NCBI GenBank assembly: GCA_964360965.1
Contig: CAYHYM010000003.1
Span: 29-64,028 of the forward strand
Direction: 5' to 3'
Length of the DNA: 64,000 nucleotides
DNA from: an uncultured Gammaproteobacteria bacterium
Lineage (GTDB): Bacteria; Patescibacteriota; Microgenomatia; Daviesbacterales; UBA10151
Each line of letters starts with the position of its first letter. Positions within the stretch are counted from its first letter, which is position 1. The position numbers and the translations under genes are program-made. Positions 8,043 through 54,633 of this stretch are shown here, in pieces. Below the pieces are notes generated by a model. That model saw nothing but the letters and a program-made list of their open reading frames with translations, was not told the DNA's origin and did no database searches.

Positions 8043-10934
8043 GTGAAATTGCTGCCCCTTTTAATTTTTCTATTCACTTTTATTACGCTTCCCTCCCCAA
8101 TCTATGCTGTCACCATTGCTGAGCAAACCCAAAACTTTGGAAATCAGCTAAATGTCTGGCAGGCAATTCAAGAGCTGGGCAGCTTGCTTGATGGCAAGGC
8201 CGGTTCCTTTACTTTCAGGGTACGTACCACTAAGACCAACCTTGAAATGTTTGATTATACTGCTCAAAATACCAAGATTTATGATAAGGACACAAACACC
8301 AAAGTTGCCAACGGCTGCCACACAGGTTCTGCCTCTGATCCTTTGGGTGGCTTGACCTTTACCACAGCCGGGGTACCTGTTGGTTTTGAAGACGTGACAA
8401 TTGATTTTTCATCCTGTAACTCTTACTCCTTCACTCAAGGACATAAATATTTAATTATTATAAGTAATGCCAATATGGCACAATTTGGTGGAAGTTTAAT
8501 CTATTTTGCAGCCGCTGCTTACGGGTCAAGCAGCACTGACCATTTTAATGGTGGGGGTTTAAGGTATGCTTTTGATAATAAATTTTGCAACCCAATCACT
8601 TACCAATGGAATTCTTCAATAAGTAATGCAAATGAAGACCAATGTAATATTTGGACCACACCCAAAGATGACCTTTATTTTATTTTAGCCAACACCTCCC
8701 CTCCTCCCAAAACCCCGGTTATTTTTATACCCGGGATAGGGGGGTCTGAATTTAAAGCAGGGCAGGATATTATCTGGGCAGATCAGGATGATGGACATGG
8801 AGGAAAGTTTTCTCATGCTTATACATCTGGGGAGAAAATTTGGGTCAATGAGGGTAAGGCGGCCGAACTGGGGGAGGATGATTATTTTGATGTATTAAGA
8901 TTAAAATCTGATGGAGTAACTTCTGAGGCTTCTCTAAGTTTAACAGGAGATCTGACTTCTTTTGGTTATGGGGATATTGATTCATTTTTTACCGGATTGG
9001 GGTATGAGAAAGGTAAAAATTTCTTTGTTTTTCCCTATGATTGGAGAAAGGATGTGAGAGTTACCAAAGATAGTTTGGATGCCTTAATTGAGGAGGCAAA
9101 AACCAAATCAGGACAAACTAAGGTTAATCTAGTGGCCCATTCCATGGGAGGCTTGGTAGCCAGATATTATATTGCTGATTCAGGGAGAGCTTCTAAGGTT
9201 AATAAGCTAATTTCTATGGGAGTTCCCCATTTGGGAGCAACAAAAGCTTTGAAAACCCTAATGTATGGAGATGAAATAAAGAAGGATGTATTTGGTATAT
9301 TTGCACTAGGAATCCCATCAAGTGAGGTCAAAGACGTATTCCAAAATCTCCCCAGCGCATTCCAGCTTTTACCTTCCAAAAAATTTTATGATTTCTATGA
9401 CAACTCTGCTCAGAAACCTTTCCCGTTTAGCGACGAAAGAGATATTGACAGTAACAAAGTTACTGGAGCACTAAACTTTATTCAAATCAAAGGATTGCTG
9501 GAAAATTTAATACACAATATGACAGTATTTGACTTTGGAGAACAACTTCATAATTTAGCTGATCCATTACTTAATCAATCTTCAACAGTCAAGTTGTATA
9601 ACATAGCTGGTACCAGCCAACCTACTTTAGGACAAATCAGGGAAACGTGGTTAATACAGTGGCCTATTAATTTAATCTCTATAAGAGACGAGGTCTTTAT
9701 TAACGGAGACAATACAGTGCCGCTCTATAGTGCCTCACTTAAAAGTGATTCTTTAGATTTTTCAGGCAGTGCAACTATTTATTATGTGGAACAAAAACAC
9801 AGTGATCTGGTTTCAAAAGATGGCACAGCTATGCAAACAGTAAAGTCTATTTTAGAAGAATCTGATTTACCTGTTGAGGTTAAATCCGAAAAGATTGATT
9901 TGGAAGGACAGCATGTGTCTTTGGATGATGGGGAATTGGAATTGTATGATGATGAAGGAAAACATACTGGCATAAAAGATGACGGAGAAATTGAAACCAA
10001 TATTCCTGAAACTTTTTATTCAACATCAGGTAAAACTAAACATGCTTTTGTTAAAAAGAAAGCTAAAAAAGTGAAAGTGAGGGCTACTCGAAAAAAGAAA
10101 ACCTCATCAGATCCCAAAACAACCAATCTAAAAATTAGAAGTTATAAACAGGATAAGGTTTCTAAAACCACAATTTATAGAGATGTCTTAATTGCTGAAA
10201 CAGCCAAAGTTGAATTTGATCTGGATCCAGCAATTGATACTTCTCCAACCCTTGCATTATTTCCTGATTCCACCAAATCTGACAGCACAAATATTAATCT
10301 CACTAGTGAGGTATCAGGTGGTCCTGCCTTAGACCAAACATCACCTTCTACAAAGATAGAACTATCAGGAAGTAAAGATTCATTAGGCAAGTTTATATCC
10401 TCTGCCACAGTAACCTTAAGTTCCTCTGATTCTGAATCGGGAATTTTAAAAACAGAATATAGTTTGGATAATGGTAAGACTGTTCAAACGTACAGTAATC
10501 CATTCACTGTCTCAACTCCTGGTAAAACTACTTTACAGGTAAAGTCTATTGATAAATTAGGTAATGAGGAAATACCACAAGAAAAGGTCATAGAGATTGC
10601 TTCATCAACTTCTAGCTCATCTTCTTCCAGCTCATCTGGCAATAACTCATCAAGCACTGCACAATCCACCTCTGAGGAGTCCGTTCCGGTCACCTCCGAG
10701 GTGTTACGAAGTGACTCCTCGGAGGTGGATAGCACAAGCTCATCACAAGATATCCTGGGACTTAGCACCCAAAATCCAGTTTCATCTGCTCAATTAAAAC
10801 CTCTAACTAACAACCAACCTAATCTACTAACAAGCAGTATGTTGATCTTAACAATGTTTATGGCCCAAAGCGGAATAATTCTTTTGTCATCCTTAAGATC
10901 AGTTCTTTCTTTTCTTAAACCAACCCCAAAATAG
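8043..10934 (+). CDS. Large secreted, C-terminally membrane-anchored alpha/beta-hydrolase (lipase/LCAT-like) with Ser-rich low-complexity linker
   Basis: 963 aa, GTG start. Signal peptide MKLLPLLIFLFTFITLPSPIYA, PVIFIPGIGGSEF oxyanion region, nucleophile elbow VAHSMGGLVARYY, Lys-rich segment, poly-Ser stretch and C-terminal hydrophobic anchor LLTSSMLILTMFMAQSGIILLSSL. Confidence 0.6.
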   Translation: MKLLPLLIFLFTFITLPSPIYAVTIAEQTQNFGNQLNVWQAIQELGSLLDGKAGSFTFRVRTTKTNLEMFDYTAQNTKIYDKDTNTKVANGCHTGSASDPLGGLTFTTAGVPVGFEDVTIDFSSCNSYSFTQGHKYLIIISNANMAQFGGSLIYFAAAAYGSSSTDHFNGGGLRYAFDNKFCNPITYQWNSSISNANEDQCNIWTTPKDDLYFILANTSPPPKTPVIFIPGIGGSEFKAGQDIIWADQDDGHGGKFSHAYTSGEKIWVNEGKAAELGEDDYFDVLRLKSDGVTSEASLSLTGDLTSFGYGDIDSFFTGLGYEKGKNFFVFPYDWRKDVRVTKDSLDALIEEAKTKSGQTKVNLVAHSMGGLVARYYIADSGRASKVNKLISMGVPHLGATKALKTLMYGDEIKKDVFGIFALGIPSSEVKDVFQNLPSAFQLLPSKKFYDFYDNSAQKPFPFSDERDIDSNKVTGALNFIQIKGLLENLIHNMTVFDFGEQLHNLADPLLNQSSTVKLYNIAGTSQPTLGQIRETWLIQWPINLISIRDEVFINGDNTVPLYSASLKSDSLDFSGSATIYYVEQKHSDLVSKDGTAMQTVKSILEESDLPVEVKSEKIDLEGQHVSLDDGELELYDDEGKHTGIKDDGEIETNIPETFYSTSGKTKHAFVKKKAKKVKVRATRKKKTSSDPKTTNLKIRSYKQDKVSKTTIYRDVLIAETAKVEFDLDPAIDTSPTLALFPDSTKSDSTNINLTSEVSGGPALDQTSPSTKIELSGSKDSLGKFISSATVTLSSSDSESGILKTEYSLDNGKTVQTYSNPFTVSTPGKTTLQVKSIDKLGNEEIPQEKVIEIASSTSSSSSSSSSGNNSSSTAQSTSEESVPVTSEVLRSDSSEVDSTSSSQDILGLSTQNPVSSAQLKPLTNNQPNLLTSSMLILTMFMAQSGIILLSSLRSVLSFLKPTPK
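10691..10728. repeat. Family-A GC-rich palindromic module (CACCTCCGAGG-N15-CCTCGGAGGTG) inserted in-frame in the Ser-rich region of the lipase-like CDS
   Basis: 11-bp stem, 15-nt loop. Encodes VTSEVLRSDSSEVDS. The same arm sequences recur at 37955, 40767, 49149 and 54015. Confidence 0.6.
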
Positions 10935-11174
10935 ATGGATAATCCAAAACCAGAAAGTAATGTTTATTAGGTATACTAACAATATTTTTATCTTTTCATA
11001 ATGCTGCAAACATAATGCAACTGGGTATCCTGTAACTGTACACGAACTACCTAAAAGCGAGAAACCTTGTGGCCAATAGCTAGAATTAAAAAGTTGTATA
11101 AAATTACTTACCACCCATACCAATATACTTATACCCAAAGTAACAAAAAATCTTTTTTTAGAAAATCCCCACAT
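10899..11174 (-). CDS. Small hypothetical membrane protein (uncertain)
   Basis: 91-aa hydrophobic ORF overlapping the 3' end of the lipase-like gene by 36 nt. No motif support. Confidence 0.25.
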   Translation of the reverse strand: MWGFSKKRFFVTLGISILVWVVSNFIQLFNSSYWPQGFSLLGSSCTVTGYPVALCLQHYEKIKILLVYLINITFWFWIIHLFWGWFKKRKN

Positions 11175-11209
11175 GTATTAAGAATAACATAAACTTAATT
11201 AAAAAATAC

Positions 11210-14557: not shown

Positions 14558-17161
14558 GTGGAAAAGGCATATACAAAAACCGCTGAGCAAGTTATTAAAG
14601 ATCTAAAAACTGATCTTAAAGACGGGCTGACATCAGCCCAAGCCCAAAAAAGATTAGCACAATATGGCCCAAATGTCTTAAAAGAAGAGATCGGTAAAAA
14701 TCCTTTGCTGATTTTATTTTCCCAGTTCAGAAGCTTTTTGGTGATTATTTTAATAGTTGCCTCCATCATCTCATATCTGTTGGGTCATAGCCTTGACGCC
14801 TTGATGATTTTGGCCATTGTCGCAATTAATGCTGTCTTAGGCTTTATTCAAGAATATCGGGCAGAGGAATCCATCAAACATCTGAAAAAACTGGTCACTG
14901 CCAATGTCCAGGTGATCAGAGATGGCCGGTTAGTAGAGATTCCCCACTTTCAACTGGTACCAGGAGATTTGGTAATTGTAAGTGACGGCCAAAAAGTCCC
15001 GGCTGATTTAAGAGTAACACAATCCATCTATCTGCACCTTAATGAAGCACCACTGACCGGAGAATCAATTCCTGTCACCAAAGTAACAGACAGCTTACCC
15101 CCCAACACCAACATAGCTGATCAAAAAAATATGCTTTTTGCAGGCACCTCAGTCTCTTCTGGCAAGGGTATGGGGATAGTTGTATCAACAGCTATGAAAA
15201 CAGAAATTGGCCAAATTGCCCATCTGGTATCACAAGAGGTGGAACCAGAAACCCCCCTCAAACAAAAGCTGGATCGTTTGGGCAAACTTTTGGGCAGAAT
15301 TGTTTTAATCGTCGCCTCCTTAATTGCCCTGGAACAAATAATATTGGGTGAACCAGTTATTGAAGCTCTCATCTCATCAGTGGCCTTGGCAGTAGCAGCC
15401 ATACCAGAAGGCTTGCCTGCCATTGTCACCATCTCTTTGGCTTTGGGCACCAAAAGGCTTCTTAAACAACGTGCCTTAATCAGAAATTTGCCTGCCTCAG
15501 AAACCTTAGGATCAACAGAGGTAATATGTGTAGACAAAACTGGCACCCTAACAGAAGGAGAAATGTCTGTGAGAGAGATTTACGGCGCAAATATTCAAAA
15601 AATTCTCACTGTGGGGATACTTTCAAGCAATGCCAGAAAAAATAAAGACAGAATTATTGGAGATGCCACTGAGGCAGCTTTAATACAAAAGGCCATAGAT
15701 TCAGGACTGGATCAGGATCAATTGGATAAAAAATTTCCTCGAGTACAAGAAATACCCTTTTCTTCAGACAGAAAAATGATGACCACCATCTGCAAAGAGG
15801 ATAATCAATACCGGGTGACCAGCAAAGGTGCAACCGAAGTCATCTTGGACAAATGTTCACATATTGAGGAGAATGGCCAGGTTATACCATTAACTGAGGA
15901 GAAAAAAGAACAGATTTTAAAAGTTAATGACCAAATGGCCCAAGATGCCTTGAGGATTTTGGCTTTTGCCGAGAAGCGCATACACCTTGCAGGTGAAGAA
16001 AATGCAGTTACACCTGCGAGGTGGAAAGAAGAAGAGATAGAAAAAGATCTGATCTTTCTAGGCCTTCAGGGAATGATGGATCCACCAAGGGAAGGTGTTA
16101 AAGAGGCTATTGAGGTTTGTCAAAGAAAAGCAGGAATTAAAGTAATAATGATCACCGGAGATCACCTGTTAACTGCCCAATCCATTGCCAAAGAAATTGG
16201 TATCAAGGGGGAGAGCATCAGCGGTCAAGAGCTTGACAATCTTTCTGAAGAAGAATTTGTCAAAAAAGTTCAGGAAATTAACATCTATGCCAGGGTCAGC
16301 CCCACTCATAAAATTAGGATCATCAAGGCCCTAAAAGCCCGCGGTCATCAGGTGGCCATGACAGGTGATGGGGTCAATGATGCTCCGGCCTTAAAGGCTG
16401 CTGATACTGGGGTGGCCATGGGGGTTACGGGCACCGACGTGGCCAAAGATGCCTCAGATATAATTTTACTGGATGATAATTTCACCACCATTGTGCAAGC
16501 CATAAAAGAAGGAAGGACAATTTTTGACAACATCAGAAAATTTGTTAATTACCTGTTATCTTCAAACATTATGGAAATAATGGTGATATCTTTGGCTGTA
16601 ATTTTGGGTGGGGGACATTTGCCGCTTTTACCTATTCATCTTTTATGGATCAATCTGGTCACTGATGGGCTGCCGGCCCTGGCTTTGGGAGTTGATCCGC
16701 CCAGAGCAGACATCATGAGTTTACCGCCCCAAAATTTTAGGCAGCAGATATTGGGTGGTAGATCTTTAGGGCCTTTAACTGCCGTCAGTGTACTTTTAAC
16801 CATAGCTATCCTTGCTATTTTCTTTATCTATCAAAAAGATCCAATTTATGAACAAACCATGGTTTTTACATCCATTGTCTTTTATGAAATGTTAAGAATT
16901 ATTGCCATAAGGTCTGAATATAAACTGCCGTTTTTCTCAAATAAATTCTTAATCCTTGCTATAGCTGGATCATTAGCACTGCATCTTGTGATTCTTTATC
17001 TACCATTCTCTTTTGCAGGAGTAACATTGCAAGAATTATTTAAAGTTCAGCCGTTAAATCTTTTTGACTGGGTACTACTGCTTGGAATTGGCATCTTCCT
17101 TCTATTTATCATGAGAATCTTGGTCATTACACCTGTATTTAATTTTTTAAAAAAGCCTTGA
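14558..17161 (+). CDS. P-type cation-transporting ATPase, type IIA (Ca2+/SERCA-like)
   Basis: 867 aa. DKTGTLT, PEGLPA, TGDGVNDAPAL, 10 TM segments. Carries an in-frame palindromic insertion at 15983..16023. Confidence 0.9.
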   Translation: MEKAYTKTAEQVIKDLKTDLKDGLTSAQAQKRLAQYGPNVLKEEIGKNPLLILFSQFRSFLVIILIVASIISYLLGHSLDALMILAIVAINAVLGFIQEYRAEESIKHLKKLVTANVQVIRDGRLVEIPHFQLVPGDLVIVSDGQKVPADLRVTQSIYLHLNEAPLTGESIPVTKVTDSLPPNTNIADQKNMLFAGTSVSSGKGMGIVVSTAMKTEIGQIAHLVSQEVEPETPLKQKLDRLGKLLGRIVLIVASLIALEQIILGEPVIEALISSVALAVAAIPEGLPAIVTISLALGTKRLLKQRALIRNLPASETLGSTEVICVDKTGTLTEGEMSVREIYGANIQKILTVGILSSNARKNKDRIIGDATEAALIQKAIDSGLDQDQLDKKFPRVQEIPFSSDRKMMTTICKEDNQYRVTSKGATEVILDKCSHIEENGQVIPLTEEKKEQILKVNDQMAQDALRILAFAEKRIHLAGEENAVTPARWKEEEIEKDLIFLGLQGMMDPPREGVKEAIEVCQRKAGIKVIMITGDHLLTAQSIAKEIGIKGESISGQELDNLSEEEFVKKVQEINIYARVSPTHKIRIIKALKARGHQVAMTGDGVNDAPALKAADTGVAMGVTGTDVAKDASDIILLDDNFTTIVQAIKEGRTIFDNIRKFVNYLLSSNIMEIMVISLAVILGGGHLPLLPIHLLWINLVTDGLPALALGVDPPRADIMSLPPQNFRQQILGGRSLGPLTAVSVLLTIAILAIFFIYQKDPIYEQTMVFTSIVFYEMLRIIAIRSEYKLPFFSNKFLILAIAGSLALHLVILYLPFSFAGVTLQELFKVQPLNLFDWVLLLGIGIFLLFIMRILVITPVFNFLKKP
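15983..16023. repeat. Family-B 41-bp hairpin module (CACCTYGCAGGTG-AAGAAAATGCAGTTA-CACCTGCGAGGTG) inserted in-frame in the P-type ATPase CDS
   Basis: 13-bp perfect stem with 15-nt loop. 35 nt are identical to the intergenic copy at 40403..40443. Encodes RIHLAGEENAVTPARW in the cytoplasmic domain. Confidence 0.7.
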
Positions 17162-18112: not shown

Positions 18113-19157
18113 GGTGTGCCTCCGCAGCCGGGCTTTGTTTTTTCCGCTTCAATAAATAATTATATGCAGCCAAGGCAGCCCTTACCCCATCACCTGCAGA
18201 AATATTATTTTGTTTATAAGGATCATTGGTGACGTCCCCACAAGCAAAAACCCCGGGATGGGAGGTGGTGGCATGTTGAAAATTCACCATGATTTGTCCA
18301 TGGTCATCAATTTGTACCAAATCTTTAACCATCTCAGAGTTAGGAACTGAGCCTATTTCCACAAATATCCCGCCCACTTCCAAAGTCTTTTCTTCTGCAC
18401 TTCCACTCCCGATGTGGGATTGAGCTGACACATCGGGAGTGTGTATTCGGTATTTGAGCCCGGTTACCAATGCTTCCCCCACCACTTCCACAGTTTGGGC
18501 ATTAAGAATAATTTGTCTAAGTTTGGGGTTTTTCTTGATTTCCTCAATAGTTGCCGGATCAGCTCTTAAGATCTCACCCCTCTCCATCAGGTAAATTTCT
18601 GATGCATAGGGAAAAAGGTCCTGTACTGCCTCGAGTCCGGCATTTCCTCCACCAACAACTGCCACCTTTTTATCGCGAAAAAGGGGAGCATCGCATGTTG
18701 AGCAATATACCACACCCCTACCTTCAAACTTATCCTCCCCTGGAATGCCTAGTTTCCTACGTCTGGCACCTGAGGCCACAATGACGGTTTTCCCCTGATA
18801 TACTTGTCCTGAGCCTGTCGAAGGATCTGTAGTCACCTCAAAATCACAGATCCTCCCAGCAGACACCTCGGATGGTGTGGACTCAGTAGACCTGCATGCA
18901 ACAGATTTTACCTTCACCACCTTTTCTGTTTTTATATCAACAATATCTGGATAAGCTCTAACATGAGCTTCCAGTTTTTTAGCTAAATTGAGTCCAGAAA
19001 TATGTACCTCTCCTATCCAGTTTTGAATATCATCTGAGACAATTGACTGCCCGCCAAAAGATTCTGTAATAAGGAGAGTTTTCATCTGCTTTCTTGCCGC
19101 ATAAACAGCAGCAGCACAAGCTGCAGGTCCTCCACCAATGATAATTACGTCATACAT
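18102..19157 (-). CDS. trxB: Thioredoxin-disulfide reductase carrying two in-frame palindromic insertions
   Basis: 351 aa. FAD site IIGGGPAACAAAVYAAR, redox-active YCSTCD, NAD(P) site VAVVGGGNAGLE. It is ~40 aa longer than typical TrxB because of insertions at 18405..18440 and 18801..18824. Confidence 0.8.
   Translation of the reverse strand: MYDVIIIGGGPAACAAAVYAARKQMKTLLITESFGGQSIVSDDIQNWIGEVHISGLNLAKKLEAHVRAYPDIVDIKTEKVVKVKSVACRSTESTPSEVSAGRICDFEVTTDPSTGSGQVYQGKTVIVASGARRRKLGIPGEDKFEGRGVVYCSTCDAPLFRDKKVAVVGGGNAGLEAVQDLFPYASEIYLMERGEILRADPATIEEIKKNPKLRQIILNAQTVEVVGEALVTGLKYRIHTPDVSAQSHIGSGSAEEKTLEVGGIFVEIGSVPNSEMVKDLVQIDDHGQIMVNFQHATTSHPGVFACGDVTNDPYKQNNISAGDGVRAALAAYNYLLKRKKQSPAAEAHHGA
18405..18440. 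repeat. Family-D hairpin module (ACTCCCGATGTG-N12-CACATCGGGAGT) in-frame in trxB
   Basis: 12-bp perfect stem. Encodes SAQSHIGSGSAEE. A near-identical copy at 20492..20528 sits in an unrelated aldolase gene and encodes HTQSHIGSGTTKA. Confidence 0.7.
18801..18824. repeat. Family-E module (TACTTGTMCTGAGCYTGTCGAAG) in-frame in trxB
   Basis: Encodes DPSTGSGQV. Related copies lie at 24398..24429 (cop[11 protein letters not shown]) and 47781..47806 (DUF3048 protein, STSSVQV). Confidence 0.6.
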
Positions 19158-20119: not shown

Positions 20120-20143
20120 CTTCTTCCACCTCCGAGGTGTTTT

Positions 20144-20989
20144 CTAATCCATCATAACAACTTCTGTTAAAACTTTAAATCTTTCTGGTAAGGTTTTTGT
20201 TAAAAACTGTTGTTTTTCTTCCCCTTGCAAACTGCAAACCTCCTGCCACAGCGCCCTTCCTGCTAAAAAGCCTTTGGCCCCTGCTTTTATTGCAACTTTC
20301 AAATTTTCTTTAAAAACCTCAAAACTATCTCCTCCTGTAAGTAAAATCCATGGAGTATCACCTACCATATTGGTAATTTCCACGCATACATCCAAATCAC
20401 CCGGATATTCCAACTTCCACACATCTGGAACTATCCTAACCTCCTTAAAAATTTTCACTGACTCGATCACCAACCCTGCTTTAGTGGTCCCACTCCCGAT
20501 GTGAGATTGAGTATGCACATCGGGAGTGTACGTGACAATTTCTAAAAAAAATGGGAAATCATGAATCTTACAATCCTCTAAAACTTTCCTGGCAGTTTCC
20601 AGCTGTTTTTTTGCACTTTCTAAGTTTGGATTAAAATAAATCAAAAGTTTGGCCCCAGAAGCCCCCAGCTCTTTTAACTGCCCAACTATGTATTCCAACT
20701 CCGTAATTCTTTCTCCAGCCTGGTTAACGTATCCGCTTTTTTCTAAAGGTAATAAAAATGGTTTTGTTTGGCAAGCTTCTTTACATGCCTCTATGCCATA
20801 GTGTTCATCAATCAACAGTCCTGAAACTTGACCTGCTAAAGCATTGATAATTTCTGATTTCAGGGAAACAACAGTCTCATCAGAAACACTATCAGCATCC
20901 TGTGGATTTATTAATTTCTTAAATGATCCCCTATGGTCCAAAGCCAACATCAAAAATTTGCCATCAGATGTAAACTTACTTAAATCCAT
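20144..20989 (-). CDS. Class I aldolase of the tagatose-bisphosphate aldolase (LacD)/DhnA-like family
   Basis: 281 aa. N-terminal GKFLMLALDHRGSFKKL resembles LacD ALAFDQRG. Carries Family-D insertion 20492..20528. Confidence 0.55.
   Translation of the reverse strand: MDLSKFTSDGKFLMLALDHRGSFKKLINPQDADSVSDETVVSLKSEIINALAGQVSGLLIDEHYGIEACKEACQTKPFLLPLEKSGYVNQAGERITELEYIVGQLKELGASGAKLLIYFNPNLESAKKQLETARKVLEDCKIHDFPFFLEIVTYTPDVHTQSHIGSGTTKAGLVIESVKIFKEVRIVPDVWKLEYPGDLDVCVEITNMVGDTPWILLTGGDSFEVFKENLKVAIKAGAKGFLAGRALWQEVCSLQGEEKQQFLTKTLPERFKVLTEVVMMD
20492..20528. repeat. Family-D hairpin module copy, in-frame in the aldolase gene
   Basis: ACTCCCGATGTG-AGATTGAGTATG-CACATCGGGAGTG. Same stem as 18405..18440; the loop differs at 4 positions. 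Confidence 0.7.
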
Positions 20990-23265: not shown

Positions 23266-25272
23266 CTATATTTTCACTCTTTTTAATAATAACGAATTAG
23301 TAACAACAGATATAGAACTTGTGGCCATAGCAACTGATGCAAAAATCGGATTCAATAGTAAATGAAAGAATGAATAGAGAATTCCCATAGCAACAGGTAT
23401 CAGTATAATATTATATCCAAAAGCCCAAAACAGATTCAACTTAATAGTTCTCATGGTTTTTTGGGATAACTCAACTGCATGAGCTACGGATTTTAAGTCT
23501 TTATTGATTAGTGTAATATCAGCAGCTTCTATTGCTACATCCGTACCAGTTCCCATGGCAATGCCTATATCTGCAGCAGCCAGAGCTGGAGCATCGTTAA
23601 TCCCATCACCAACCATAGCAACTTTTTTACCCTCTGCCTGAATTTTTTTCACCTCTGCTTCTTTCTGATCTGGTAAGACTTCTGCCAAAACTCTTTTAAT
23701 ACCCACTTGATCTGCAATAGCGTCAGCAGTCCTCTTATTATCTCCTGTAATCATCACAACTTCTATGCCCATTTTTTGCAATGACTGCACACCTTCTCTG
23801 GCAGTGTCTTTTAAAGTATCGGCCACAGCAATTAAACCCGCTAATTTTCTATTTGCAGCCAGCATCATTACTGTCTTACCATCATTTTCAAATTTCTCAA
23901 TATCTGTGAGATTTTTTTCATAAATCACGTTCTCCCTGTCCATAAGCTTGCGATTTCCCAGGAAAACTTTCTGGTTGTTAACTACCCCTTCTATCCCAAA
24001 TCCAGGGATTGCTTTAAAATATTTAACCTTCGGAATAGTCTCACCCTCTATGCCAAGATTTCTTCCATACTCTAAAATTGCTTCTGCAAGAGAATGTTCT
24101 GAAGACTTTTCCAGAGCAACTGCCCGAGAAAGTATTAGCATATCACTGTTATACATTCTATTACCCGTTGTCTTAATATCTGTAACCACTGGTTTCCCTT
24201 TGGTGAGTGTTCCTGTTTTATCAAAAATCACGGTATTTATTTTATGGGCTGTTTCCAAGCTTTCTGCATCTTTTATTAAAATCCCATGCTCTGCCCCAAT
24301 CCCTGTTCCCACCATAATAGCTGTGGGAGTAGCCAGACCCATGGCACAAGGGCAGGCAATAATTAAAACTGCTATGGCATTTAACATGGCAAATAAGAGG
24401 GGGACCTGCCCTGAGCTTGTCGAAGGGCCAAACACATACCAACCGACAAATGTGACAATTGCCAGCATAATCACAATGGGCACAAAATAAGAGGAAATTA
24501 AATCTGCAATCCTTTGGATTGGAGCTTTAGAGCCTTGTGCTTCCTGGACTAACTTAATAATTTGAGCGAGCATGGTATCAGAACCTACTTTTGTGGCTTT
24601 ATAAGTAAAAGTGCCTGATTTATTAATTGTTGCCCCGACAACTATATCTCCTTTAGCTTTATCAACCGGCATACTCTCACCAGTTATCATTGACTCATCT
24701 ATAGAGGATTCACCTTCAACTATCACTCCATCTACTGGAATTTTCTCACCAGGTCTGACTCTGATTACATTACCAACCACAACCTGATCAATAGGTATAT
24801 CTTTTTCCTGACCATCAACTAGAACCCTGGCAGTTTTAGCTTGTAATCCAATTAATTTTTTAATAGCTTCAGAAGTTCCAGCTTTGGCTTTGGCCTCAAA
24901 ATAACGGCCAAGCAAAATCAAACCGATAATAATTGTGGAAACATCAAAATACGGTTCCGGTTTGATGCCAATATTTTCCATCACTTGAGGAAAAATAGTC
25001 ACAAAGGCGGAATAGGAAAAAGCCACACTAGTACCAATGGCAACCAGTGTGTCCATATTGGCAGTACGATGACGCAGTGCAGGCAGTGTTGCTTGATAAA
25101 ATTCCCATCCTGCCCAAAATTGAACTGGGGTGGCCAAAAGCAGTTGTACCCAGAAGTTTTGTAAAATAGTTGGGGAAGTTACCATTAATCCTGGAAAAGA
25201 ACCCCATAAAATCAGTCCACCTAAAACCAAACTTATTACCACTTTAATTTGTAAATCCTTCTCTCTGTTCAT
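23266..25272 (-). CDS. copA: Cu+-exporting P1B-type ATPase (no N-terminal HMA domain)
   Basis: 668 aa. TM CPC motif [29 protein letters not shown]. Carries Family-E insertion 24398..24429. Confidence 0.9.
24398..24429. repeat. Family-E module copy, in-frame in copA
   Basis: GGGGGACCTGCCCTGAGCTTGTCGAAGGGCC shares the CTGAGCTTGTCGAAG core with 18801 and 47781. Encodes [10 protein letters not shown] between TM helices. Confidence 0.6.
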
Positions 25273-29260: not shown

Positions 29261-29280
29261 GTTTATATTCCTTACTTAAC

Positions 29281-33409: not shown

Positions 33410-33480
33410 CTGCGGAGCAGGGATTCGAACCCCAATACCGACATTCAGAGTGTCGTGTCCTACCATTAGACGACTCCGCA
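33410..33480 (-). tRNA. tRNA-Gln (anticodon CUG), no encoded 3' CCA
   Basis: Minus-strand read UGCGGAGUCGUCUAAUGGUAGGACACGACACUCUGAAUGUCGGUAUUGGGGUUCGAAUCCCUGCUCCGCAG. 7-bp acceptor stem (U1:A72 as in E. coli tRNA-Gln), D-arm GUCUAAUGGUAGGAC, anticodon loop CUCUGAA, T-loop UUCGAAU. The 3' end is followed by TAG, not CCA. Confidence 0.85.
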
Positions 33481-34883: not shown

Positions 34884-34917
34884 ATTATATCTTCGATTTC
34901 TGTATAATAGAAGGGGT

Positions 34918-36805: not shown

Positions 36806-38160
36806 TTAGTTAATCTAACATCCACTCTTTCCATATCTCTGGGAAAAAGCGAAGCTTGCCTGATATTAGAAAGGTTTAAGACGTGCATGGTAATTCTTTC
36901 TAAGCCGAAAGAGAAACCTCCTTCTGACGGCATGCCAAATTTAAAAGCCATCAAATACATCTCAAAATCTTTAGGATCCATCCCATGTGCTTTAATTGAT
37001 TCCACTAATTGTTTATAGTCATTAATTCTTTGAGAACCACTCATTATTTCAACCCCTCTAAATAGAAGGTCATAGCTTAAGGAATAATCCGGATCTTTTG
37101 GATCAGGTTTGGTATAAAAAGGTTTTGATTGGGTTGGAAAATGAGTAATGGTCACAAAATCGCAGTGATGTTTTTCTTTTGCCCATTTGCAGATATCGAT
37201 CTCATCCTGCGGAGTTAAATCTTTTTCTTTCCTGTTATCCCTTCCAAACTCTTTTAATATAACTTCCTGGGCTTCCCTAAGTGTCAATCTCGGAATATCT
37301 CCGAAAGCTATCTGTTCCATTCCAAGTTCTTTTAAAATATCACCACATCCATTTTCAGTTTGCTTTAATGTCTCCACTGCAACTTTTTCTAAAAGATCCA
37401 AAAGATCTTCAAACTCCACAAAACCTATCTCACAATCCATTTGAGTAATTTCCGATAAATGTCTTGTTGTCACAGAAGGTTCTGCTCTATATGCTTTTGT
37501 GATTGTAAAAACTCTTTCAAGGGATGGAACCAACATTTGTTTGTAAAGTTGCGGGCTTTGGGTCAAAAAGGCTTTATGACCATAATAGTCAACTTTAAAC
37601 ACTTGTGCTCCTCCTTCTGTAGATGAGGCGACAATGGTTGGAACAACAATCTCAGTGCAACCAATTTCTTTTGCAGCCTTTCTGAATCCTTCCAAAATAC
37701 TCGCTTGAACTCTAAATATTGCTTTAACTTTTGGATGGCGCAAAGTGAGAGAGCGAAAATCCAAAAGGGTTGGTAGTTGTAAATCCAAATCTTTTCCTCC
37801 CATATCAAACGGTAGCTCTTCTGCTTTTGACAAGATTTCCATGGAATCTGCAGATATTTCTATTTCACCTGTGGGAATATTTTCATTGACCAGATTTTCT
37901 GGCCGCTTGTTAACTTTTCCAGTTATACAAACTACATCTTGGGAGTGTAGGCTACCCACCTCGAAGGTGGGCTCTGACTCCTTCGAGGTAGATTTTGTCT
38001 GTTGTGATACTACCACTTGTATTAATCCACTTCTATCTAAGATATCCAAAAATAAAATCTTGCCATGGTCACGGCGGGTTTGCACCCACCCACAAACCTC
38101 AACAGATTCCCCAACTTTTTTACTACAATCTAGAATGAGAGTACGTTCCATAAATGTCAT
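36802..38160 (-). CDS. aspS: Aspartyl-tRNA synthetase, archaeal/eukaryotic type (class IIb)
   Basis: 452 aa. N-terminal OB fold, class II motifs, motif 3 GGFSFGLERITMHVL. Carries a Family-A in-frame module at 37955..37989. Confidence 0.85.
   Translation of the reverse strand: MTFMERTLILDCSKKVGESVEVCGWVQTRRDHGKILFLDILDRSGLIQVVVSQQTKSTSKESEPTFEVGSLHSQDVVCITGKVNKRPENLVNENIPTGEIEISADSMEILSKAEELPFDMGGKDLDLQLPTLLDFRSLTLRHPKVKAIFRVQASILEGFRKAAKEIGCTEIVVPTIVASSTEGGAQVFKVDYYGHKAFLTQSPQLYKQMLVPSLERVFTITKAYRAEPSVTTRHLSEITQMDCEIGFVEFEDLLDLLEKVAVETLKQTENGCGDILKELGMEQIAFGDIPRLTLREAQEVILKEFGRDNRKEKDLTPQDEIDICKWAKEKHHCDFVTITHFPTQSKPFYTKPDPKDPDYSLSYDLLFRGVEIMSGSQRINDYKQLVESIKAHGMDPKDFEMYLMAFKFGMPSEGGFSFGLERITMHVLNLSNIRQASLFPRDMERVDVRLTK
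37955..37989. repeat. Family-A palindromic module in-frame in the aspS anticodon-binding domain
   Basis: CCCACCT-CGA-AGGTGGG plus outer arms ACCTCGAAGG/CCTTCGAGGT. Encodes STSKESEPTFEVGS. Confidence 0.6.
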
Positions 38161-40402: not shown

Positions 40403-40443
40403 CACCTCGCAGGTGAAGAAAATGCAGTTACACCTGCGAGGTG
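40403..40443. repeat. Family-B 41-bp hairpin module, intergenic copy (5' UTR of recJ, upstream of cca)
   Basis: CACCTCGCAGGTG-AAGAAAATGCAGTTA-CACCTGCGAGGTG. On the recJ mRNA the 3' arm GAGGTG lies 8 nt before the recJ ATG, so the SD is sequestered in the stem. Identical over 35 nt to 15983..16023. Confidence 0.7.
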
Positions 40444-40493: not shown

Positions 40494-41906
40494 ATGAACT
40501 ACTCATTACCTAACGAGGTTAAAAATATTTTAGAAAAGTTTAAAAAAGCCAAATTTCAAATTTATATTGTGGGAGGAGCTGTCCGTGATCTTTTAATGGA
40601 AAAAGGGGTTAAAGATTGGGATTTCACCACTGATGCCAAACCGGAGGAGATTATAAAATTATTTCCGGAAGGTTTTTACGATAACAAATTTGGAACAGTA
40701 GGAATTCCTATAGAAGTGGGAAAAGACACTTTGGATGGTGGCAGGCTGAAGCGAAGCGTAATCCATGACTCCTCCGAGGTGGAAGTATATGAAATCACCA
40801 CCATGCGAAAGGAAGGAGTATACAAGGATTACAGACACCCAGACAAAGTGGCATGGACAGATAAAATTGAACAAGATCTAGGCAGACGTGACTTTACTGT
40901 TAATGCCATTGCCCTTTCCGTCATCCCGACAAATGTCGGGATCCAATTAACAGATCCATTTAATGGCCAGCAGGATATGAAGGATAAGATAATCAAAGCC
41001 GTGGGTGATCCTGGCAAAAGATTTCAAGAAGATGCTCTTCGTTTAATAAGAGCAATCAGAATTGCCACCCAGTTAGAATTTGACATAGATGAAAAAACTT
41101 ATTCTGCCATCAAAAAAAATGCTCATCTTTTAAAAGAAGTTTCCCGGGAAAGAATTCGTGATGAGCTCTTTAAAATACTTGCATCTGGCAATCCTCACTC
41201 CGGTATAGTGAAATTGAGAGAAACAGGCTTACTACAAATAATCTTACCCGAACTTGAAAGATGTTTTGGCATTGTCCAGGAAGGACCCAAACATGATAGA
41301 GTTTATGATATTGGAAACCATTCCCTGCTCACTCTTCAACATACACCGTCTACTGATCCGTTAACCAGATTTGCAGCACTTTTGCATGATATTGGCAAAC
41401 CGGACACTGTTAACACTGCTCAAGATGGCAATGTCACTTTTTACCATCATGATGTGATTGGTGGAAAATTGATTTTAAAAATTGGGAAAAAGTTTAATTT
41501 ATCGAAAAAGCAAAAAGATAAATTATACCGCTTAGTGAGATGGCACTTATTTACTGTTGATGAAAATCAAACAGACTCTGCCATCAGAAGATTTATAAAA
41601 AATGTGGGGTTAGATTATATAGAAGATATGATGGCATTACGTATTGGAGACAGATTGGGAGGAGGGACCCAAAAAGCTGTCTCTTGGAGAATGGAAAAAT
41701 TCGCTGATCGAATAAAACAAGTCCTTAAAAAACCATTCTCTATTTCTGATCTAAAAGTAAATGGCCATGATGTAATGGAAGTTTTAAAAATCAAACCAGG
41801 CCCCAAGGTTGGTGAAATCCTCCAAAAACTTTTTGAAGAAGTCCTAGAAGATTCATCTAAAAATAATCGGAATTATCTTATTGATAGAATGAAGGAACTT
41901 GGTTAG
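40494..41906 (+). CDS. cca: CCA-adding tRNA nucleotidyltransferase with HD domain
   Basis: Start at MNYSLPNEVKNILEKFKKAKFQIYIVGGAVRDLLM; the track ORF starts at 40395 inside the hairpin. PolyA_pol head GGAVRD, D..D, HD domain LLHDIGKP. Carries a Family-A/C composite in-frame module at 40748..40782 (GRLKRSVIHDSSEVEV). Confidence 0.85.
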   Translation: MNYSLPNEVKNILEKFKKAKFQIYIVGGAVRDLLMEKGVKDWDFTTDAKPEEIIKLFPEGFYDNKFGTVGIPIEVGKDTLDGGRLKRSVIHDSSEVEVYEITTMRKEGVYKDYRHPDKVAWTDKIEQDLGRRDFTVNAIALSVIPTNVGIQLTDPFNGQQDMKDKIIKAVGDPGKRFQEDALRLIRAIRIATQLEFDIDEKTYSAIKKNAHLLKEVSRERIRDELFKILASGNPHSGIVKLRETGLLQIILPELERCFGIVQEGPKHDRVYDIGNHSLLTLQHTPSTDPLTRFAALLHDIGKPDTVNTAQDGNVTFYHHDVIGGKLILKIGKKFNLSKKQKDKLYRLVRWHLFTVDENQTDSAIRRFIKNVGLDYIEDMMALRIGDRLGGGTQKAVSWRMEKFADRIKQVLKKPFSISDLKVNGHDVMEVLKIKPGPKVGEILQKLFEEVLEDSSKNNRNYLIDRMKELG

Positions 41907-47351: not shown

Positions 47352-48566
47352 TTAATAACTTATCTTTGCGCCTTCCGGCACAGTCTGAATCCAAATCTGA
47401 CCAGGATTAAATTCTATTTCCTTACCATTGCTACTGACAAATTTAGTTCTATCTACTCTTTTATTTTTAACCCATTTACCTTCTATCGCAACACCGTCTT
47501 GAAAAATTAAAGCTTTACCAGTTCCTGTTGTACCATAAAGTAAATGGATATTGCCCGGATATCCGTCATTGGCATTTGCCTCCCTCTGAAATTGAACAAC
47601 TATATTTTTGGCTGCAAGCTGACGCTTATTGTTTAAATCAGTTTGTTCTATACCGCCATTTTTTCTTTTATAAGAATTTGAGACAGCATCATAAATCCAC
47701 TCCACACCATATTCACCCTGTCCTTCCCAGAAACTGACTGTAATTTTACTTATTTGCCCTTTAGTCTCTTGTGGTGAGCGTACTTGTACTGAGCTTGTCG
47801 AAGTAGTCGAACCATTAAACTTCCAAGGTACATAATTTTTGTCCCAGGAATCTCCATCCTCATCTTTTTCTACCCACCCTCTTTTGGCTGCTGTCTCCCA
47901 CAGCTTTTGGGTGGTGGAATACATGGTATGTTCTGTTGCCACCGGATGACCCAGTCTTTGATAATCCCTCCAAAAAATAGGAAAACCAATGCTAAATTGA
48001 TTTAAATCTTTGATTTTATATGCAATAATTTGAGAAAGCGCATCTGCCGGACCTGGGGTATTTGCTCCGCCAACATGGGCATATAAAGCATCATATTCTG
48101 AAAGCCAGTCCAGATAATAAGTCCGAGCAGATCTGACCGGTCCCACCTGAATATCAGACAAACGACAGTAAAAAATAGCCATAAATCTGGTAATTCCACC
48201 TTCTGCCACCGCCTCATAAATAATATCTGCAGAGGATAATCCTGATTGAGGTCTGGCCTCTGAGTGATTTTCAATCATTATTGCCAAGGGCCTTCTTTTC
48301 TCCCAAGCCTCTTTAGCCGCCTTGGTATGTAGACTGCCATTTAAAGGACATTTTTCTGTTTTTGGCTCTTTTTCATCTTCTTCAACAACGCTTGAGGGTC
48401 CCGGCAAAGAACTGATTAGCTCTCCGTTTAATGAGGGTGAGGTAGAGGAGAATACCGAATAAGAAAGTGTGGCGGAGGCACCGTAAATAAAAATTGATAA
48501 AATTATACCTACCAAAATCTGCTGCAGTTTAGTTAATTTTTGAAATGTTTCCAAAATACTGTTCAT
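47352..48566 (-). CDS. DUF3048 (YerB-like) secreted protein
   Basis: 404 aa. Signal anchor, then RPLAIMIENHSEARPQSGLSSADIIYEAVAEGGITRFMAIFY...VGPVRSARTYY matches the YerB/DUF3048 core. Carries Family-E module 47781..47806. Confidence 0.6.
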   Translation of the reverse strand: MNSILETFQKLTKLQQILVGIILSIFIYGASATLSYSVFSSTSPSLNGELISSLPGPSSVVEEDEKEPKTEKCPLNGSLHTKAAKEAWEKRRPLAIMIENHSEARPQSGLSSADIIYEAVAEGGITRFMAIFYCRLSDIQVGPVRSARTYYLDWLSEYDALYAHVGGANTPGPADALSQIIAYKIKDLNQFSIGFPIFWRDYQRLGHPVATEHTMYSTTQKLWETAAKRGWVEKDEDGDSWDKNYVPWKFNGSTTSTSSVQVRSPQETKGQISKITVSFWEGQGEYGVEWIYDAVSNSYKRKNGGIEQTDLNNKRQLAAKNIVVQFQREANANDGYPGNIHLLYGTTGTGKALIFQDGVAIEGKWVKNKRVDRTKFVSSNGKEIEFNPGQIWIQTVPEGAKISY

Positions 48567-49092: not shown

Positions 49093-49129
49093 CTACGTTC
49101 ATGTAAACGTTCATGTAAACTGAACATAG
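49093..49129. repeat. Reverse-orientation, internally duplicated copy of the rnpB P3 hairpin
   Basis: Reverse complement CTATGTTCAGTTTACATGAACGT-TTACATGAACGT-AG versus rnpB P3 CTACGTTCAGTTTACATGAACGTAG (52398..52422). 19 nt are identical, plus a 12-nt tandem duplication. A Family-A module follows at 49149..49175. Confidence 0.55.
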
Positions 49130-49175
49130 TCAATCAAGTAAAATTTAACACCTCGGAGGTGGACTCTAACTCCTA

Positions 49176-49712
49176 TCAGAAAGTGACTAAGATTGGGCAA
49201 AAAACTAAATAGGTTCTTAAACTATCAATAGCCTTCGTAATTCTTTCAATAGTGAAATAAAATCTTTTACCTTTCCAGGGATCAATAATCACAATTTTAT
49301 CTCCAATCATTTTCTCAACTAACACAAAATGTGGAGCATGTACACTATGTCTTAAGTAATATATGTCTAAGTGTAAAATAAATAATTTTTGCTTATGAAT
49401 TATTTTCTGAATAAAGGGAATATTAATTCTTTGAAATTCTATCTCAAGCTTTCGATTAACAGGTAGATTTTTTAAGACTTTAGTGAAATATTTGTTACCT
49501 ACCCATACTTTCAAGGGAAGATTAAATTTTGTTGAGAACTCATTTAAAATACCTATATGGTAAATCTCTCTCGCAAACAGTATTCCTTTAAACAAAAGTT
49601 CTTGTTCATCCTCCAGCTTAAAACTGGTTCCTTTTATGTAAGATAACCACATCAGCAAACAGGCAGGAAGACAACTTTCGCAGGTGGTCTGTTTATAGGG
49701 AATAATTCTCAT
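49176..49712 (-). CDS. Stand-alone C39-like (papain-fold) cysteine peptidase domain protein
   Basis: 178 aa. QTTCESCLPACLLMWLSYIKG fits the C39 Q..C..ACL.M.L..G catalytic-Cys motif. Downstream His HAPHFVLVEKMIGDKIVIIDPW. Confidence 0.55.
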   Translation of the reverse strand: MRIIPYKQTTCESCLPACLLMWLSYIKGTSFKLEDEQELLFKGILFAREIYHIGILNEFSTKFNLPLKVWVGNKYFTKVLKNLPVNRKLEIEFQRINIPFIQKIIHKQKLFILHLDIYYLRHSVHAPHFVLVEKMIGDKIVIIDPWKGKRFYFTIERITKAIDSLRTYLVFCPILVTF

Positions 49713-52375: not shown

Positions 52376-52662
52376 TGCCTAGGAAGAAGGATGATTGCTA
52401 CGTTCAGTTTACATGAACGTAGAGGAAAGTCCAGACAGCAAAGAGCAGGGTGTCCGGCGTAAGACGGAGGTCGTAAGATCCAGTTAGAGCAACAGTGACG
52501 AACCGAGGTAATGCTCGGATGAAACGGGCAATCCTCCCCGCTGCAATCCTAGAATCGGTCAGGTTGCTCGCCTGATGACCGGAGTAAGGAGCATTAGATA
52601 AATGATCATCAATCCTGACTAAATCGGGATGAACAGAATCTGGCTTACTCTCATCCTAGGCA
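52376..52662 (+). ncRNA. rnpB: RNase P RNA (bacterial type, compact)
   Basis: P3 hairpin 52398..52422, then GAGGAAAGTCCAGAC...AGAGCAGGGTG... (P4 5' strand, cf. GAGGAAAGTCCGGGC...CAGGGTGCC). Internal AGAGCAACAGTGACGAA (cf. GTGCAACAGAGAG). 3' ACAGAATCTGGCTTAC (P4 3' strand, cf. ACAGAACCCGGCTTA) then P1 closing TCATCCTAGGCA pairing with TGCCTAGG..ATGA at the 5' end. The 3' end overlaps the stop of the convergent AI-2E gene. Confidence 0.8.
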
Positions 52663-53624: not shown

Positions 53625-54633
53625 TTTTTTTATTTATAGCACTATCATACCATTTAGCTACCAAGTTTTCTATTTGAAGAGAGTAATCTTTACCTGTAAT
53701 ATCAAACCAATTAATACTCTTTTCCTTTTTAAACCATGTTAGCTGACGTCTTACATAGCCGTGGATTTTGTTTTGCATTATTCTAATCAGCTCATTCTTA
53801 TTTTTAATTTTACCCTCCAAATAATCTGCCAAAACTCCATACTCTAACCCTAATTCTCTCATTCTTTTAAGCGATAAGCCATTTCCATGAAGTTTTTTTG
53901 CCTCCTCAATCATCCCCTGGTTTATGCGAGCTACAACTCTCTCATCCACTCTTTGATATAAAATCTTACGCGGAGCACTCAACCCTATTTTTAAAACATT
54001 ATAAGATGCAACACCACCTCGGAGGTGGCCCGCTTCGCAGCGAGGCGAGCCGTAAGGACTCCTCCTAGGTGAAATATCAAGCTCGATTGCCCTTATTAAC
54101 CTTCTTGAATTCTCCCTATCAGATTGATTTAAACTTTCCCATTTTTCAGGAGAAACCTTTTTTAACTTTTCTTGTAACTCTGCTTTAGATAATTTAGCCA
54201 GTCTATTTCTTAATTTTTTATCTACAGGTATGGCCAAATTTGGCAACCCCTCAAATATCGCTTTTAGATATAAACCTGTGCCACCCACTATAATTGGCAG
54301 CTTCCCCTTTGCCCTAATTTCCCCAATCACCCTGTCTGCATCTTTAACATAATCAGCCACACTGTATTGTTTTTTTGGAGAAACCACATCATACATCCAA
54401 ATTTTTATTCCATCTATTTCCCAATAACCTATATCATTAGACCTACAAGGTCTTATGCGTTTGACCTCATAGGTCGAATTAGATGGCATCTTGCCGGTGC
54501 CTATATCCAGTCCCCCATATATTTGTCTGGAATCACAAGATACCAACTCACCATTAAATTTCTTGGCCAAGTAAAGTGCCAAATCAGTTTTACCTGTAGC
54601 GGTCGGTCCCAAAATAACTAAAAGTTTTTTCAT
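53608..54633 (-). CDS. miaA: tRNA dimethylallyltransferase
   Basis: 341 aa. P-loop ILGPTATGKTDLAL, SCDSRQIYGGLDIGTGK. ~30 aa longer than usual owing to composite GC-rich insertion 54012..54072. Confidence 0.9.
   Translation of the reverse strand: MKKLLVILGPTATGKTDLALYLAKKFNGELVSCDSRQIYGGLDIGTGKMPSNSTYEVKRIRPCRSNDIGYWEIDGIKIWMYDVVSPKKQYSVADYVKDADRVIGEIRAKGKLPIIVGGTGLYLKAIFEGLPNLAIPVDKKLRNRLAKLSKAELQEKLKKVSPEKWESLNQSDRENSRRLIRAIELDISPRRSPYGSPRCEAGHLRGGVASYNVLKIGLSAPRKILYQRVDERVVARINQGMIEEAKKLHGNGLSLKRMRELGLEYGVLADYLEGKIKNKNELIRIMQNKIHGYVRRQLTWFKKEKSINWFDITGKDYSLQIENLVAKWYDSAINKKNAKKN
54012..54072. repeat. Composite Family-A plus Family-C GC-rich palindromic insertion in-frame in miaA
   Basis: CACCTCGGAGGTGG-CCCGCTTCGCAGCGAGGCGAGC-CGTAAGGACTCCTCCTAGGTG. 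Encodes ISPRRSPYGSPRCEAGHLRGGVAS. Confidence 0.6.

Follow-up and report, generated by a model that had tools for sequence, protein, structure and literature searches.

A 64-kb window of DNA from an ultra-small bacterium (the window being the whole stretch analyzed here) carries five families of short GC-rich repeats, A to E. Hairpin DNA in repeated copies has entered unrelated genes at permissive loops without disturbing the reading frame, a conclusion supported at eight of 12 sites: families D, E, and A in trxB, family D in deoC, family E in copA, family B in a P-type ATPase gene, family A in aspS, and family A with a nested family C module in miaA. The elements probably resemble repetitive extragenic palindromic (REP) sequences and their hairpin-forming doublets (REPINs), mobilized by enzymes akin to REP-associated tyrosine transposases (RAYTs) and tolerated in frame. 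The window's nearest relatives belong to Candidatus Daviesbacteria/Microgenomates, within the candidate phyla radiation (CPR; Patescibacteria). The window has 38% G+C, a GC skew that is negative throughout, and the majority of its genes on the minus strand. Exact-protein look-ups recovered the same sequence in two independent replicate-sample assemblies (ENA ERZ1292623 and ERZ1292627) of groundwater from well H51 of the Hainich aquifer (0.1 µm filter fraction).

The repeats are far more frequent than expected by chance and lie where the original prediction had placed them. All counts of dispersed copies of families A to E refer to the window, and expected values derive from its shuffles. Across the 64 kb, short imperfect palindromes give 10–11 cores vs 0.01–0.15 expected. 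The 13-base family A palindrome CACCTCSGAGGTG occurs ten times with at most one mismatch (0.01 expected), and the looser core CACCTSSSAGGTG 11 times (0.10 expected). Two of the family A sites extend the earlier list, namely the decayed core in trxB and the intergenic core upstream of the 2-hydroxyacid dehydrogenase gene. The two copies of family B are identical at 40 of 41 bases. In family D, four exact copies of the arm are arranged as two doublets, which share 35 of 40 bases. The family E motif CCTGAGCYTGTCGAAGG is found four times (0.11 expected), one of these matches (19374) being native sequence; this E-like match at 19374–19390 was rejected as an element because it encodes AELVEAL, which is native and conserved in all orthologs. 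A census of GC spikes was likewise discarded as unspecific: its 38 spikes (vs 19 in shuffles) include many ordinary Gly/Ala/Pro motifs. Self-BLAST of the window is insensitive to units this short.

In families A, B, and D, a 13-base core is present twice per element, in inverted orientation and with 8–15 bases between the two cores. As the core of family D is non-palindromic, the inverted orientation of its doublet is directly evident. Folded as single-stranded DNA and compared with 200 shuffles, the doublets form perfect 10–13-bp stems (−10 to −16 kcal/mol; z between −4.0 and −7.7), and none of the 200 shuffles is equally stable; the doublet in the lipase gene, for instance, reaches −14.9 kcal/mol (z −4.8). 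In contrast, the hairpin stability of the E and C copies in the window is not significant (z +0.4, −1.3, and −1.65). Thus, the claim of hairpin-forming families holds for A, B, and D and is unconvincing for E and C in the window. Single cores, half elements, and decayed copies exist beside the doublets; the family A copy announced in cca is present as a half element only. The units measure 21–58 bases overall and the doublets 34–41 bases. At gathering thresholds, Rfam matches in the window are confined to RNase P RNA and a single tRNA, and no known RNA family accounts for the hairpins.

About 12 of the 15 copies lie inside coding sequences, rather than showing the extragenic predominance expected of REPs. 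Within each family, the same reading frame is shared across different host genes. The resulting peptides include SPRxxEAGH, QSHIGSG, PSTGSGQV, and SPRCEAGHLRGG, and the in-frame positions and shared peptides are as previously described. Family A is translated in two frames (TSEV and HLRGG), and the family C copies of gltX and miaA have CCCGCTTCG and AGCGAGGCGAG in common. Each family keeps one orientation on the plus strand, whatever the strand of the host gene, in the few copies available. The elements are compiled in Table 1.

Table 1. Repeat elements and Y1 transposase locus of the window.
Feature	Position	Strand	Location and properties
Left 45-base repeat	3562..3606	+	Hairpin ACACCCTTGGGGTGT followed by box TTGACACCTGCGGAT
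HUH/Y1 transposase gene, RAYT-like	3621..4265	+	214 aa (called as 175 aa from 3738); HUH motif HFHFL, tyrosine motif RYIHLNP
Right 45-base repeat	4267..4311	+	Direct repeat of the left one, 43/45 identical
Family A inverted doublet	10691..10727	+	Ser-rich C-terminal linker of LCAT-like lipase gene (8043–10934, +); encodes VTSEVLRSDSSEV
Family B inverted doublet	15983..16023	+	P-type ATPase gene (14558–17161, +); encodes HLAGEENAVTPARW; z −5.5
Family D inverted doublet	18404..18441	+	trxB (18102–19157, −); encodes TPDVSAQSHIGSG; perfect 13-bp stem, z −5.4
Family E module	18802..18824	+	trxB; encodes PSTGSGQ
Decayed family A core ACACCTCGGATGGTGTGGA	18863..18881	+	trxB
Single family A core	20127..20139		Spacer between deoC and 2-hydroxyacid dehydrogenase gene; GGAGGTG 7 bases before ATG at 20119
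Family D inverted doublet	20491..20528	+	DeoC-type aldolase gene (20144–20989, −); encodes TPDVHTQSHIGSG; z −6.8
Family E module	24403..24426	+	copA (23266–25272, −); encodes PSTSSGQV
Family C module	33973..33999	+	gltX (33510–34982, −); encodes SPRYADEAG; weak hairpin, z −1.65
Family A inverted doublet	37957..37990	+	Archaeal-type aspS (36802–38160, −); encodes STSKESEPTFEV; z −4.0
Family B inverted doublet	40403..40443	+	Most of the divergent recJ–cca spacer; GAGGTG (left arm) 8 bases before recJ ATG; z −7.7
Half family A element GACTCCTCCGAGGTG	40767..40781	+	cca; encodes DSSEV
Family E module, 2 mismatches	47781..47804	+	DUF3048 gene (Pfam; 47352–48566, −); encodes TSTSSVQV
Family A core with decayed second half (CACCTCGGAGGTGGACTCTAACTCC...)	49149..49179	+	Intergenic
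Composite, family C (~54028–54056) nested in the loop of a family A doublet	54015..54072	+	miaA (53608–54633, −); encodes SPRRSPYGSPRCEAGHLRGG

TrxB provides the clearest record of insertion. Its 32 orthologs (72–86% identity) range from 314 to 401 aa and differ by clean blocks at three hot spots and by an N-terminal extension. The family D segment is missing from every relative aligned and corresponds to a clean 36-base gap in the closest ortholog (80% DNA identity), compared with which the family E module is a net gain of 15 bases. At the third hot spot, the closest ortholog has an intact family A core (CACCTCGGAGGTG) and the window a decayed one, with TSEV...TSEV inserts or nothing in other orthologs. 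In an AlphaFold model of TrxB (mean pLDDT, the predicted local distance difference test, 70), all three inserts are located in loops between strands, which bears out the loop placement expected from the original prediction. The pLDDT drops below 50 at residues 90–101 and 242–252, i.e., in two of the three inserts including that of family D. With 351 aa, TrxB of the window is indeed longer than relatives without the N-terminal extension (314–333 aa), whereas the greater length also claimed for MiaA (341 aa) falls within the range of its orthologs (314–370 aa). The N-terminal extensions themselves comprise 40–55 residues in several TrxB orthologs (P0007, P0010, P0026–P0029, P0037, and others) and contain EIASSSSTPRND-like segments, which look like translated GC-rich repeat modules of a further family.

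The same pattern is found in other host genes. In DeoC, the family D segment is missing in all six orthologs and represents a net insertion of 30 bases beside a native CCACT. The family E segment of CopA is missing in both orthologs, each 73% identical. Five orthologs of the P-type ATPase lack the family B segment, and a diverged copy occupies the same site in two more distant ones (L006 and L007). Since homologs of MiaA, AspRS, and GluRS in the PDB are too distant for indel calls, closer sets were used, which settled MiaA and AspRS. At the family A site of AspRS, the closest cluster representatives show a gap of 11–14 residues. The linker of MiaA following RAIEL is a landing pad for modules: family A stands alone (SPRRSPYGHLRGG) in five orthologs, a different module (SFDFAQD) is nested in five, one such lineage displays further nesting, and the remaining orthologs carry unrelated GC-rich modules. 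Insertion at permissive loops, as proposed, is therefore borne out by ortholog gaps at the eight sites named above, and a clean indel is not shown for gltX, cca, DUF3048, and the lipase, whose linker is Ser-rich and of low complexity in comparison with a 55%-identical ortholog.

Shared peptides at equivalent positions of orthologs from distant lineages had been named as the mark of ancestral sequence. Sharing or recurrence among orthologs is seen for E in TrxB, A in MiaA, and B in the P-type ATPase, side by side with clean absences in close orthologs; not all inserts are thus private, recent events. The repeats also recur outside the window, as anticipated, with copies in other genes and in other genomes of the lineage, and single cores within long open reading frames (ORFs) occur in other genomes as well. 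On a related 574-kb contig (L091), other hairpin families including TAGCCTTCCAAGGCCTGGCCTTGGAAGGCTAA and CCTCTCCCTCAGGGAGAGG are located within long ORFs (236–260, 3142–3166, 5065, and 16481), indicating that in-gene hairpin modules are general in the clade.

The junctions give some insight into how the modules arrive. Both family D insertions adjoin a native CCACT on the plus strand, and part of one arm is consequently target sequence. Comparison of filled and empty sites reveals no target-site duplication at the D, E, and B sites, and the inserts replace a few native bases instead of being simple additions. To judge from these two sites, CCACT junctions without target duplication would fit single-strand Y1 chemistry.

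Family E deviates from a pattern of scattered insertion. The E module is located at the same TrxB codon in four orthologs that are non-sisters in a neighbor-joining tree and, additionally, in L042. Over 22 bases, the TrxB copies of the window, L003, and L042 are identical, and the flanking synonymous positions differ, which means either recurrent targeted insertion or strong constraint at the base level. Moreover, the family E 17-mer is present in at least 120 viral contigs of IMG/VR (L166–L285) of 32–73% G+C. In these hairpins, the pair next to the fixed CCT...AGG covaries, being Watson–Crick in 106 of 133 cases vs 61 in shuffles and 13 in shifted controls. T-G and G-T pairs are well above their complements, which suggests that E folds on the strand of the motif as written (CCT...AGG); in the window, this strand is antisense to the host genes. 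Many IMG/VR copies extend to CCGTTCG...CGAACGG, and a permissive Rfam scan of E-rich loci yields only sub-threshold matches to an Aggregatibacter small RNA model. Family E in the window represents a local variant, with short stems, of a group of hairpins that share a conserved loop of 11 bases and are found in very diverse genomes. The hairpin often appears in inverted pairs or tandem arrays, e.g., in L209 (3992–4086), L230 (5104–5212), and L281.

A few intergenic copies contribute Shine–Dalgarno (SD) sequences. SD motifs are rare in the window, an SD-like 4-mer preceding 16 of the 50 starts of larger ORFs, and two of the strongest are supplied by elements of family A (2-Hacid_dh) and family B (recJ). 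The suggested sequestration of ribosome-binding sites is therefore only partly borne out: these two starts have GGAGGTG and GAGGTG 7–8 bases upstream, and the cca start has no such supply, family B being rejected as its SD because the nearby ATG is out of frame. The opposite half of the palindrome could plausibly mask the SD.

A candidate mobilizing enzyme is encoded within the window itself, in a region beyond the coordinates of the original prediction (3621–4265). The protein matches Pfam PF01797 (Y1_Tnp) with an E-value of 1e-8, above the cut-off of that model. A profile of 27 members of its family finds Escherichia coli TnpA-REP (4er8) as the best PDB match (E 0.006; ISDra2 TnpA, 0.19), and the HUH and Y-x-x-x-NP motifs line up in this alignment. 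The Y1 gene adjoins cobA/lon in at least eight related genomes at 56–90% identity and thus behaves as a fixed, vertically inherited gene. The window contains one Y1 copy; related genomes hold further paralogous clades at other loci, and every such clade has a flank hairpin of its own. In L042, a Y1 paralog (10945–11520) lies between a P-type ATPase gene and its neighbor, the same two genes that overlap at 14558–14576 of the window; hence, at least some Y1 paralogs show presence/absence polymorphism in the manner of insertion sequences. In one Y1 subclade (L098, L131, L127, and similar), the left hairpin falls into the 17-base spacer of a promoter-like pair, TTGACA...TAAACT, 15–45 bases upstream of the Y1 start, which suggests that the Y1 gene could be under the control of its own product or of the hairpin.

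The connection between Y1 genes and dispersed hairpins emerges from 71 homologous Y1 loci of metagenomic origin. About 50 of them have a palindromic hairpin in direct copy on both sides of the gene, and nearly all of these flank hairpins are of the type CACC-N5-GGTG or AACC-N5-GGTT. The exact family A core CACCTCCGAGGTG flanks Y1 genes in L143, L144, L147, and L162, the aspS variant CACCTCGAAGGTG in L098, L151, and L158, and the family D core CACTCCCGATGTG in L018. Within the window, the exact 10-mer ACACCTGCGR is restricted to both family B elements and both repeats flanking the Y1 gene. In 1.9 Mb of related DNA, hairpins of this flank class number 125 compared with about five in shuffles (24-fold), and with 1.7 per 10 kb the window is 15-fold richer in them than 80 other CPR loci (0.11 per 10 kb).

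On this basis, the following course of events appears probable. On single-stranded DNA, A, B, and D doublets of a CACC-N5-GGTG-type core snap back into a hairpin. They most probably spread via HUH/Y1 tyrosine transposases, of which a very large RAYT-like clade exists in Daviesbacteria and other CPR bacteria. The enzyme would recognize the hairpin on one strand, cleave the DNA at its side, and reinsert it adjacent to a short target. Because the genome is nearly all coding, most landings would take place within genes. The survivors of the presumed selection would be those that keep the frame, bring no stop codons, and sit in surface loops or linkers, leaving short peptide inserts rich in Ser, Thr, Gly, and Pro. 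Later elements have landed in the loops of earlier ones to form nested composites, and a few intergenic copies have been co-opted as SD sequences. Other small GC-rich modules, families E and C, use the same permissive sites.

Several observations weigh against mobilization of REP/REPIN-like elements by RAYT-like enzymes. The core of the window's Y1 flanks, CACCCTTGGGGTG, has no dispersed copy in the 64 kb, and the local Y1 core is equally undispersed in most other loci over the 10–20 kb covered in each. As this cognate-core test is mostly negative, we do not claim that the Y1 gene of the window is the specific partner of families A and D, which would, if the model holds, depend on other Y1 paralogs elsewhere in the genome. 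The Y1 flanks are direct instead of inverted repeats, a layout typical of IS200/IS605, so that the gene could belong to an ordinary IS200-like element. The only NCBIfam match of the protein, NF047646 (REP-associated tyrosine transposase), scores 47.8 bits vs a cut-off of 80 bits, and the PDB match to 4er8 is weak. The sequences adjoining the copies of A, B, and D examined show no conserved GTAG or CGTC tag; one aspS arm ends in GGTAG, through mutation. Given the lack of a tag, the mostly intragenic copies, and the undispersed cognate core, the system departs from a textbook REP/REPIN-RAYT arrangement. Apart from one E-like motif beside a Y1 end (L131), nothing links families E and C to Y1 genes, and the recurrence of E at one TrxB codon in non-sister orthologs is unpredicted by transposition of low specificity. 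Neither transposition nor excision nor population polymorphism of the elements was observed.

The strongest competing explanation holds that the modules are inserted repeats moved by a different route, such as hairpin recombination or repair, gene conversion, or another site-specific enzyme, and that the Y1 genes merely share, target, or are regulated by the hairpin type. We regard this as possible, at a rather low probability. It accommodates the negative cognate-core test, the exchange of a few native bases at the junctions, and the identical E modules at one TrxB site of non-sister orthologs with differing synonymous flanks, which fit targeted or templated insertion; REP sequences are, furthermore, known targets of insertion sequences (PMC3184786). 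The exact A and D cores that flank Y1 genes in related genomes argue for an involvement of the Y1 enzymes instead, as does the 10-mer shared by family B and the window's own Y1 flank, and no other candidate enzyme is found among the annotated genes, with Pfam assignments for most, not all, of the window.

It is very unlikely that the cores are DNA uptake sequences or a motif favored in uptake and recombination by competent CPR bacteria, comparable to the uptake signal sequences (USS) and DNA uptake sequences (DUS) of Pasteurellaceae and Neisseria. A conserved 13-mer found in variable parts of proteins with a preference for one frame (TSEV), the base-level conservation of the E module across species, and a patchy distribution among relatives would be in keeping with this idea. 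Several unrelated families exist side by side, however, and whole 40-base units are copied with their non-palindromic spacers. In addition, the differences are insertions of 15–36 bases without point-mutation drift, and close relatives are almost devoid of cores. Known uptake sequences occur at roughly one per kb, well above the density of 1.7 per 10 kb in the window.

We assign a still lower probability to hairpins that arose in place, either kept for a host function (such as pausing of translation, stabilization of the mRNA, or concealment of ribosome-binding sites) or made locally by template switching during replication. The two intergenic copies that supply SDs where such motifs are rare point in this direction, as do the native bases that make up the right-arm part of both D inserts; template switching is able to generate perfect hairpins (PMC10710096). 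An origin in place is contradicted by near-identical units, including their loops, in unrelated genes and at other sites in other genomes, by the nesting in MiaA, and by the wobble pairs of E, which favor the strand antisense to the host mRNAs. The last alternative, ancestral low-complexity linkers or assembly artifacts, draws on the variable-length linkers of the lipase, gltX, and MiaA sites and on similar-length segments in distant homologs, yet it is already largely refuted by clean gaps in close orthologs, by the identical sequence in the two independent assemblies, and by related copies in unrelated studies, which leaves it a negligible probability.

Beyond the preferred reading of REP/REPIN-like elements, a wider interpretation appears doubtful at present: CPR bacteria might harbor a lineage-wide, undescribed system in which a very large RAYT-like HUH clade and several families of tiny hairpins, family E with its covarying stems among them, write peptide inserts time and again into the same permissive loops of essential proteins. 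Under this interpretation, nesting and the same codon hit in non-sister orthologs would indicate a site-recurrent, hairpin-targeted insertion mechanism. If this were true, it would constitute a distinct mode of insertion, unlike ordinary transposition of low specificity, and would keep generating hypervariable loops.

The genomes of CPR/Patescibacteria rank with the smallest known and the densest in genes and are usually called streamlined. Tiny repeats in essential genes would show that selfish DNA can persist there by hiding in protein loops, and they would explain much of the protein length variation and the odd low-complexity segments of CPR proteins. Errors in gene calling, alignments, phylogenies, and predicted structures can result from such segments. 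The ortholog series provide natural filled and empty sites for studying target choice, namely MiaA (A, A+C, and A with another module) and the three hot spots of TrxB, and the cross-phylum family E hairpin is a separate lead. The literature searched contains no paper on REP, REPIN, RAYT, or in-frame palindromic elements in Patescibacteria/CPR, nor anything specific to the peptide strings, and none of the REP/RAYT papers found names CPR bacteria; the view that the pattern is undescribed in such genomes is in accordance with this. The present elements would extend REP/RAYT-type systems past the bacterial classes already surveyed (PMC5581495).

Further features of the window lie outside families A to E. 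A GC-rich intergenic hairpin, ACTTGTCATCCCCGCGCAGGCGGGGATCC, at 29279–29311 would read WIPACAGMT on its reverse strand. This type of module recurs as WIPAYAGMT within MiaA of other Daviesbacteria and has the prefix ACTTGT in common with family E copies; the hairpin appears to be a sixth family. An inverted repeat of 19 bases without mismatches (CTACGTTCAGTTTACATGAACGTAG region) occupies 49107–49125 and 52402–52420; one copy precedes the intergenic family A element at 49149 by about 25 bases, and the other is located at the 5′ margin of the gene for RNase P RNA. This RNA (bacterial class A; 52379–52663, plus strand) accommodates all 367 model positions in 285 bases and is thus shortened. Two perfect, AT-richer palindromes with 13-bp stems (45188–45214 and 46166–46200) are located in the coding sequences 44587–45474 and 45474–46733 and bear no relation to families A to E. 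The single tRNA gene is encoded at 33410–33480 on the minus strand.

Among known systems, the mobile GC clusters and double-hairpin elements of fungal mitochondria share the GC-rich palindromic character, the AT-rich compact genome, and the occasional in-frame and nested positions. They belong to organelle genomes, however, without a known associated Y1 transposase, and their sequences are unrelated to those described here. Compared with miniature transposable elements bearing inverted repeats (MITEs), the inverted arms are present and target-site duplication is lacking. The insertion sequences IS200/IS605 and their gene-less palindrome-associated (PATE) and MITE derivatives resemble the Y1 locus in its unit of about 700 bases, with the Y1 gene between two subterminal hairpins of the same orientation (hairpin spacing of 705 bases in the window, 711 in L018, and 719 in L040). 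A further parallel is insertion without target duplication adjacent to a short target, which is CCACT in the two D insertions. In contrast to IS200/IS605, the Y1 gene is syntenic, apparently fixed, and present once in the window, the profile of its family is nearer to TnpA-REP than to ISDra2 TnpA, and the dispersed units are 40-base hairpin doublets rather than left-end plus right-end derivatives.

Rickettsia palindromic elements (RPEs), to which the original prediction had compared the repeats, measure about 100–150 bp. The units here are only 21–58 bases long and untagged, belong to an unrelated phylum, and have a candidate transposase nearby, whereas RPEs carry a CGTC tag (PMC3733652). The likeness consists in the insertion into functional genes in a shared peptide frame: RPEs are inserted in frame into unrelated functional genes, with reuse of the frame and at surface-exposed sites (PMC3733652, PMC3184786). 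Thus, the comparison is apt for the in-frame habit and not for length, and the nearest system is a different one.

In REP/REPIN-RAYT systems of Pseudomonas and Enterobacteria, several differences from the present elements are apparent. REPINs are often longer than the 34–41 bases of the doublets described here. The latter are mostly intragenic and in frame and lack the conserved GTAG or CGTC tetranucleotide that marks one end of a REP; REPs within ORFs are also on record (PMC3733652). Likewise, the repeats on either side of the Y1 gene are direct ones, its product falls short of the RAYT model's cut-off, many paralogous Y1 clades exist per lineage, the host is a CPR bacterium, and the local flank core is undispersed. 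Both systems comprise short GC-rich palindromic cores that form inverted doublets and hairpins, several families per genome with an abundance that differs strongly between related genomes, and an HUH/Y1 gene that is flanked by the same hairpin class and vertically inherited at a fixed locus. The closest known system is REP/REPIN with its RAYT-type Y1 transposase and not RPE.

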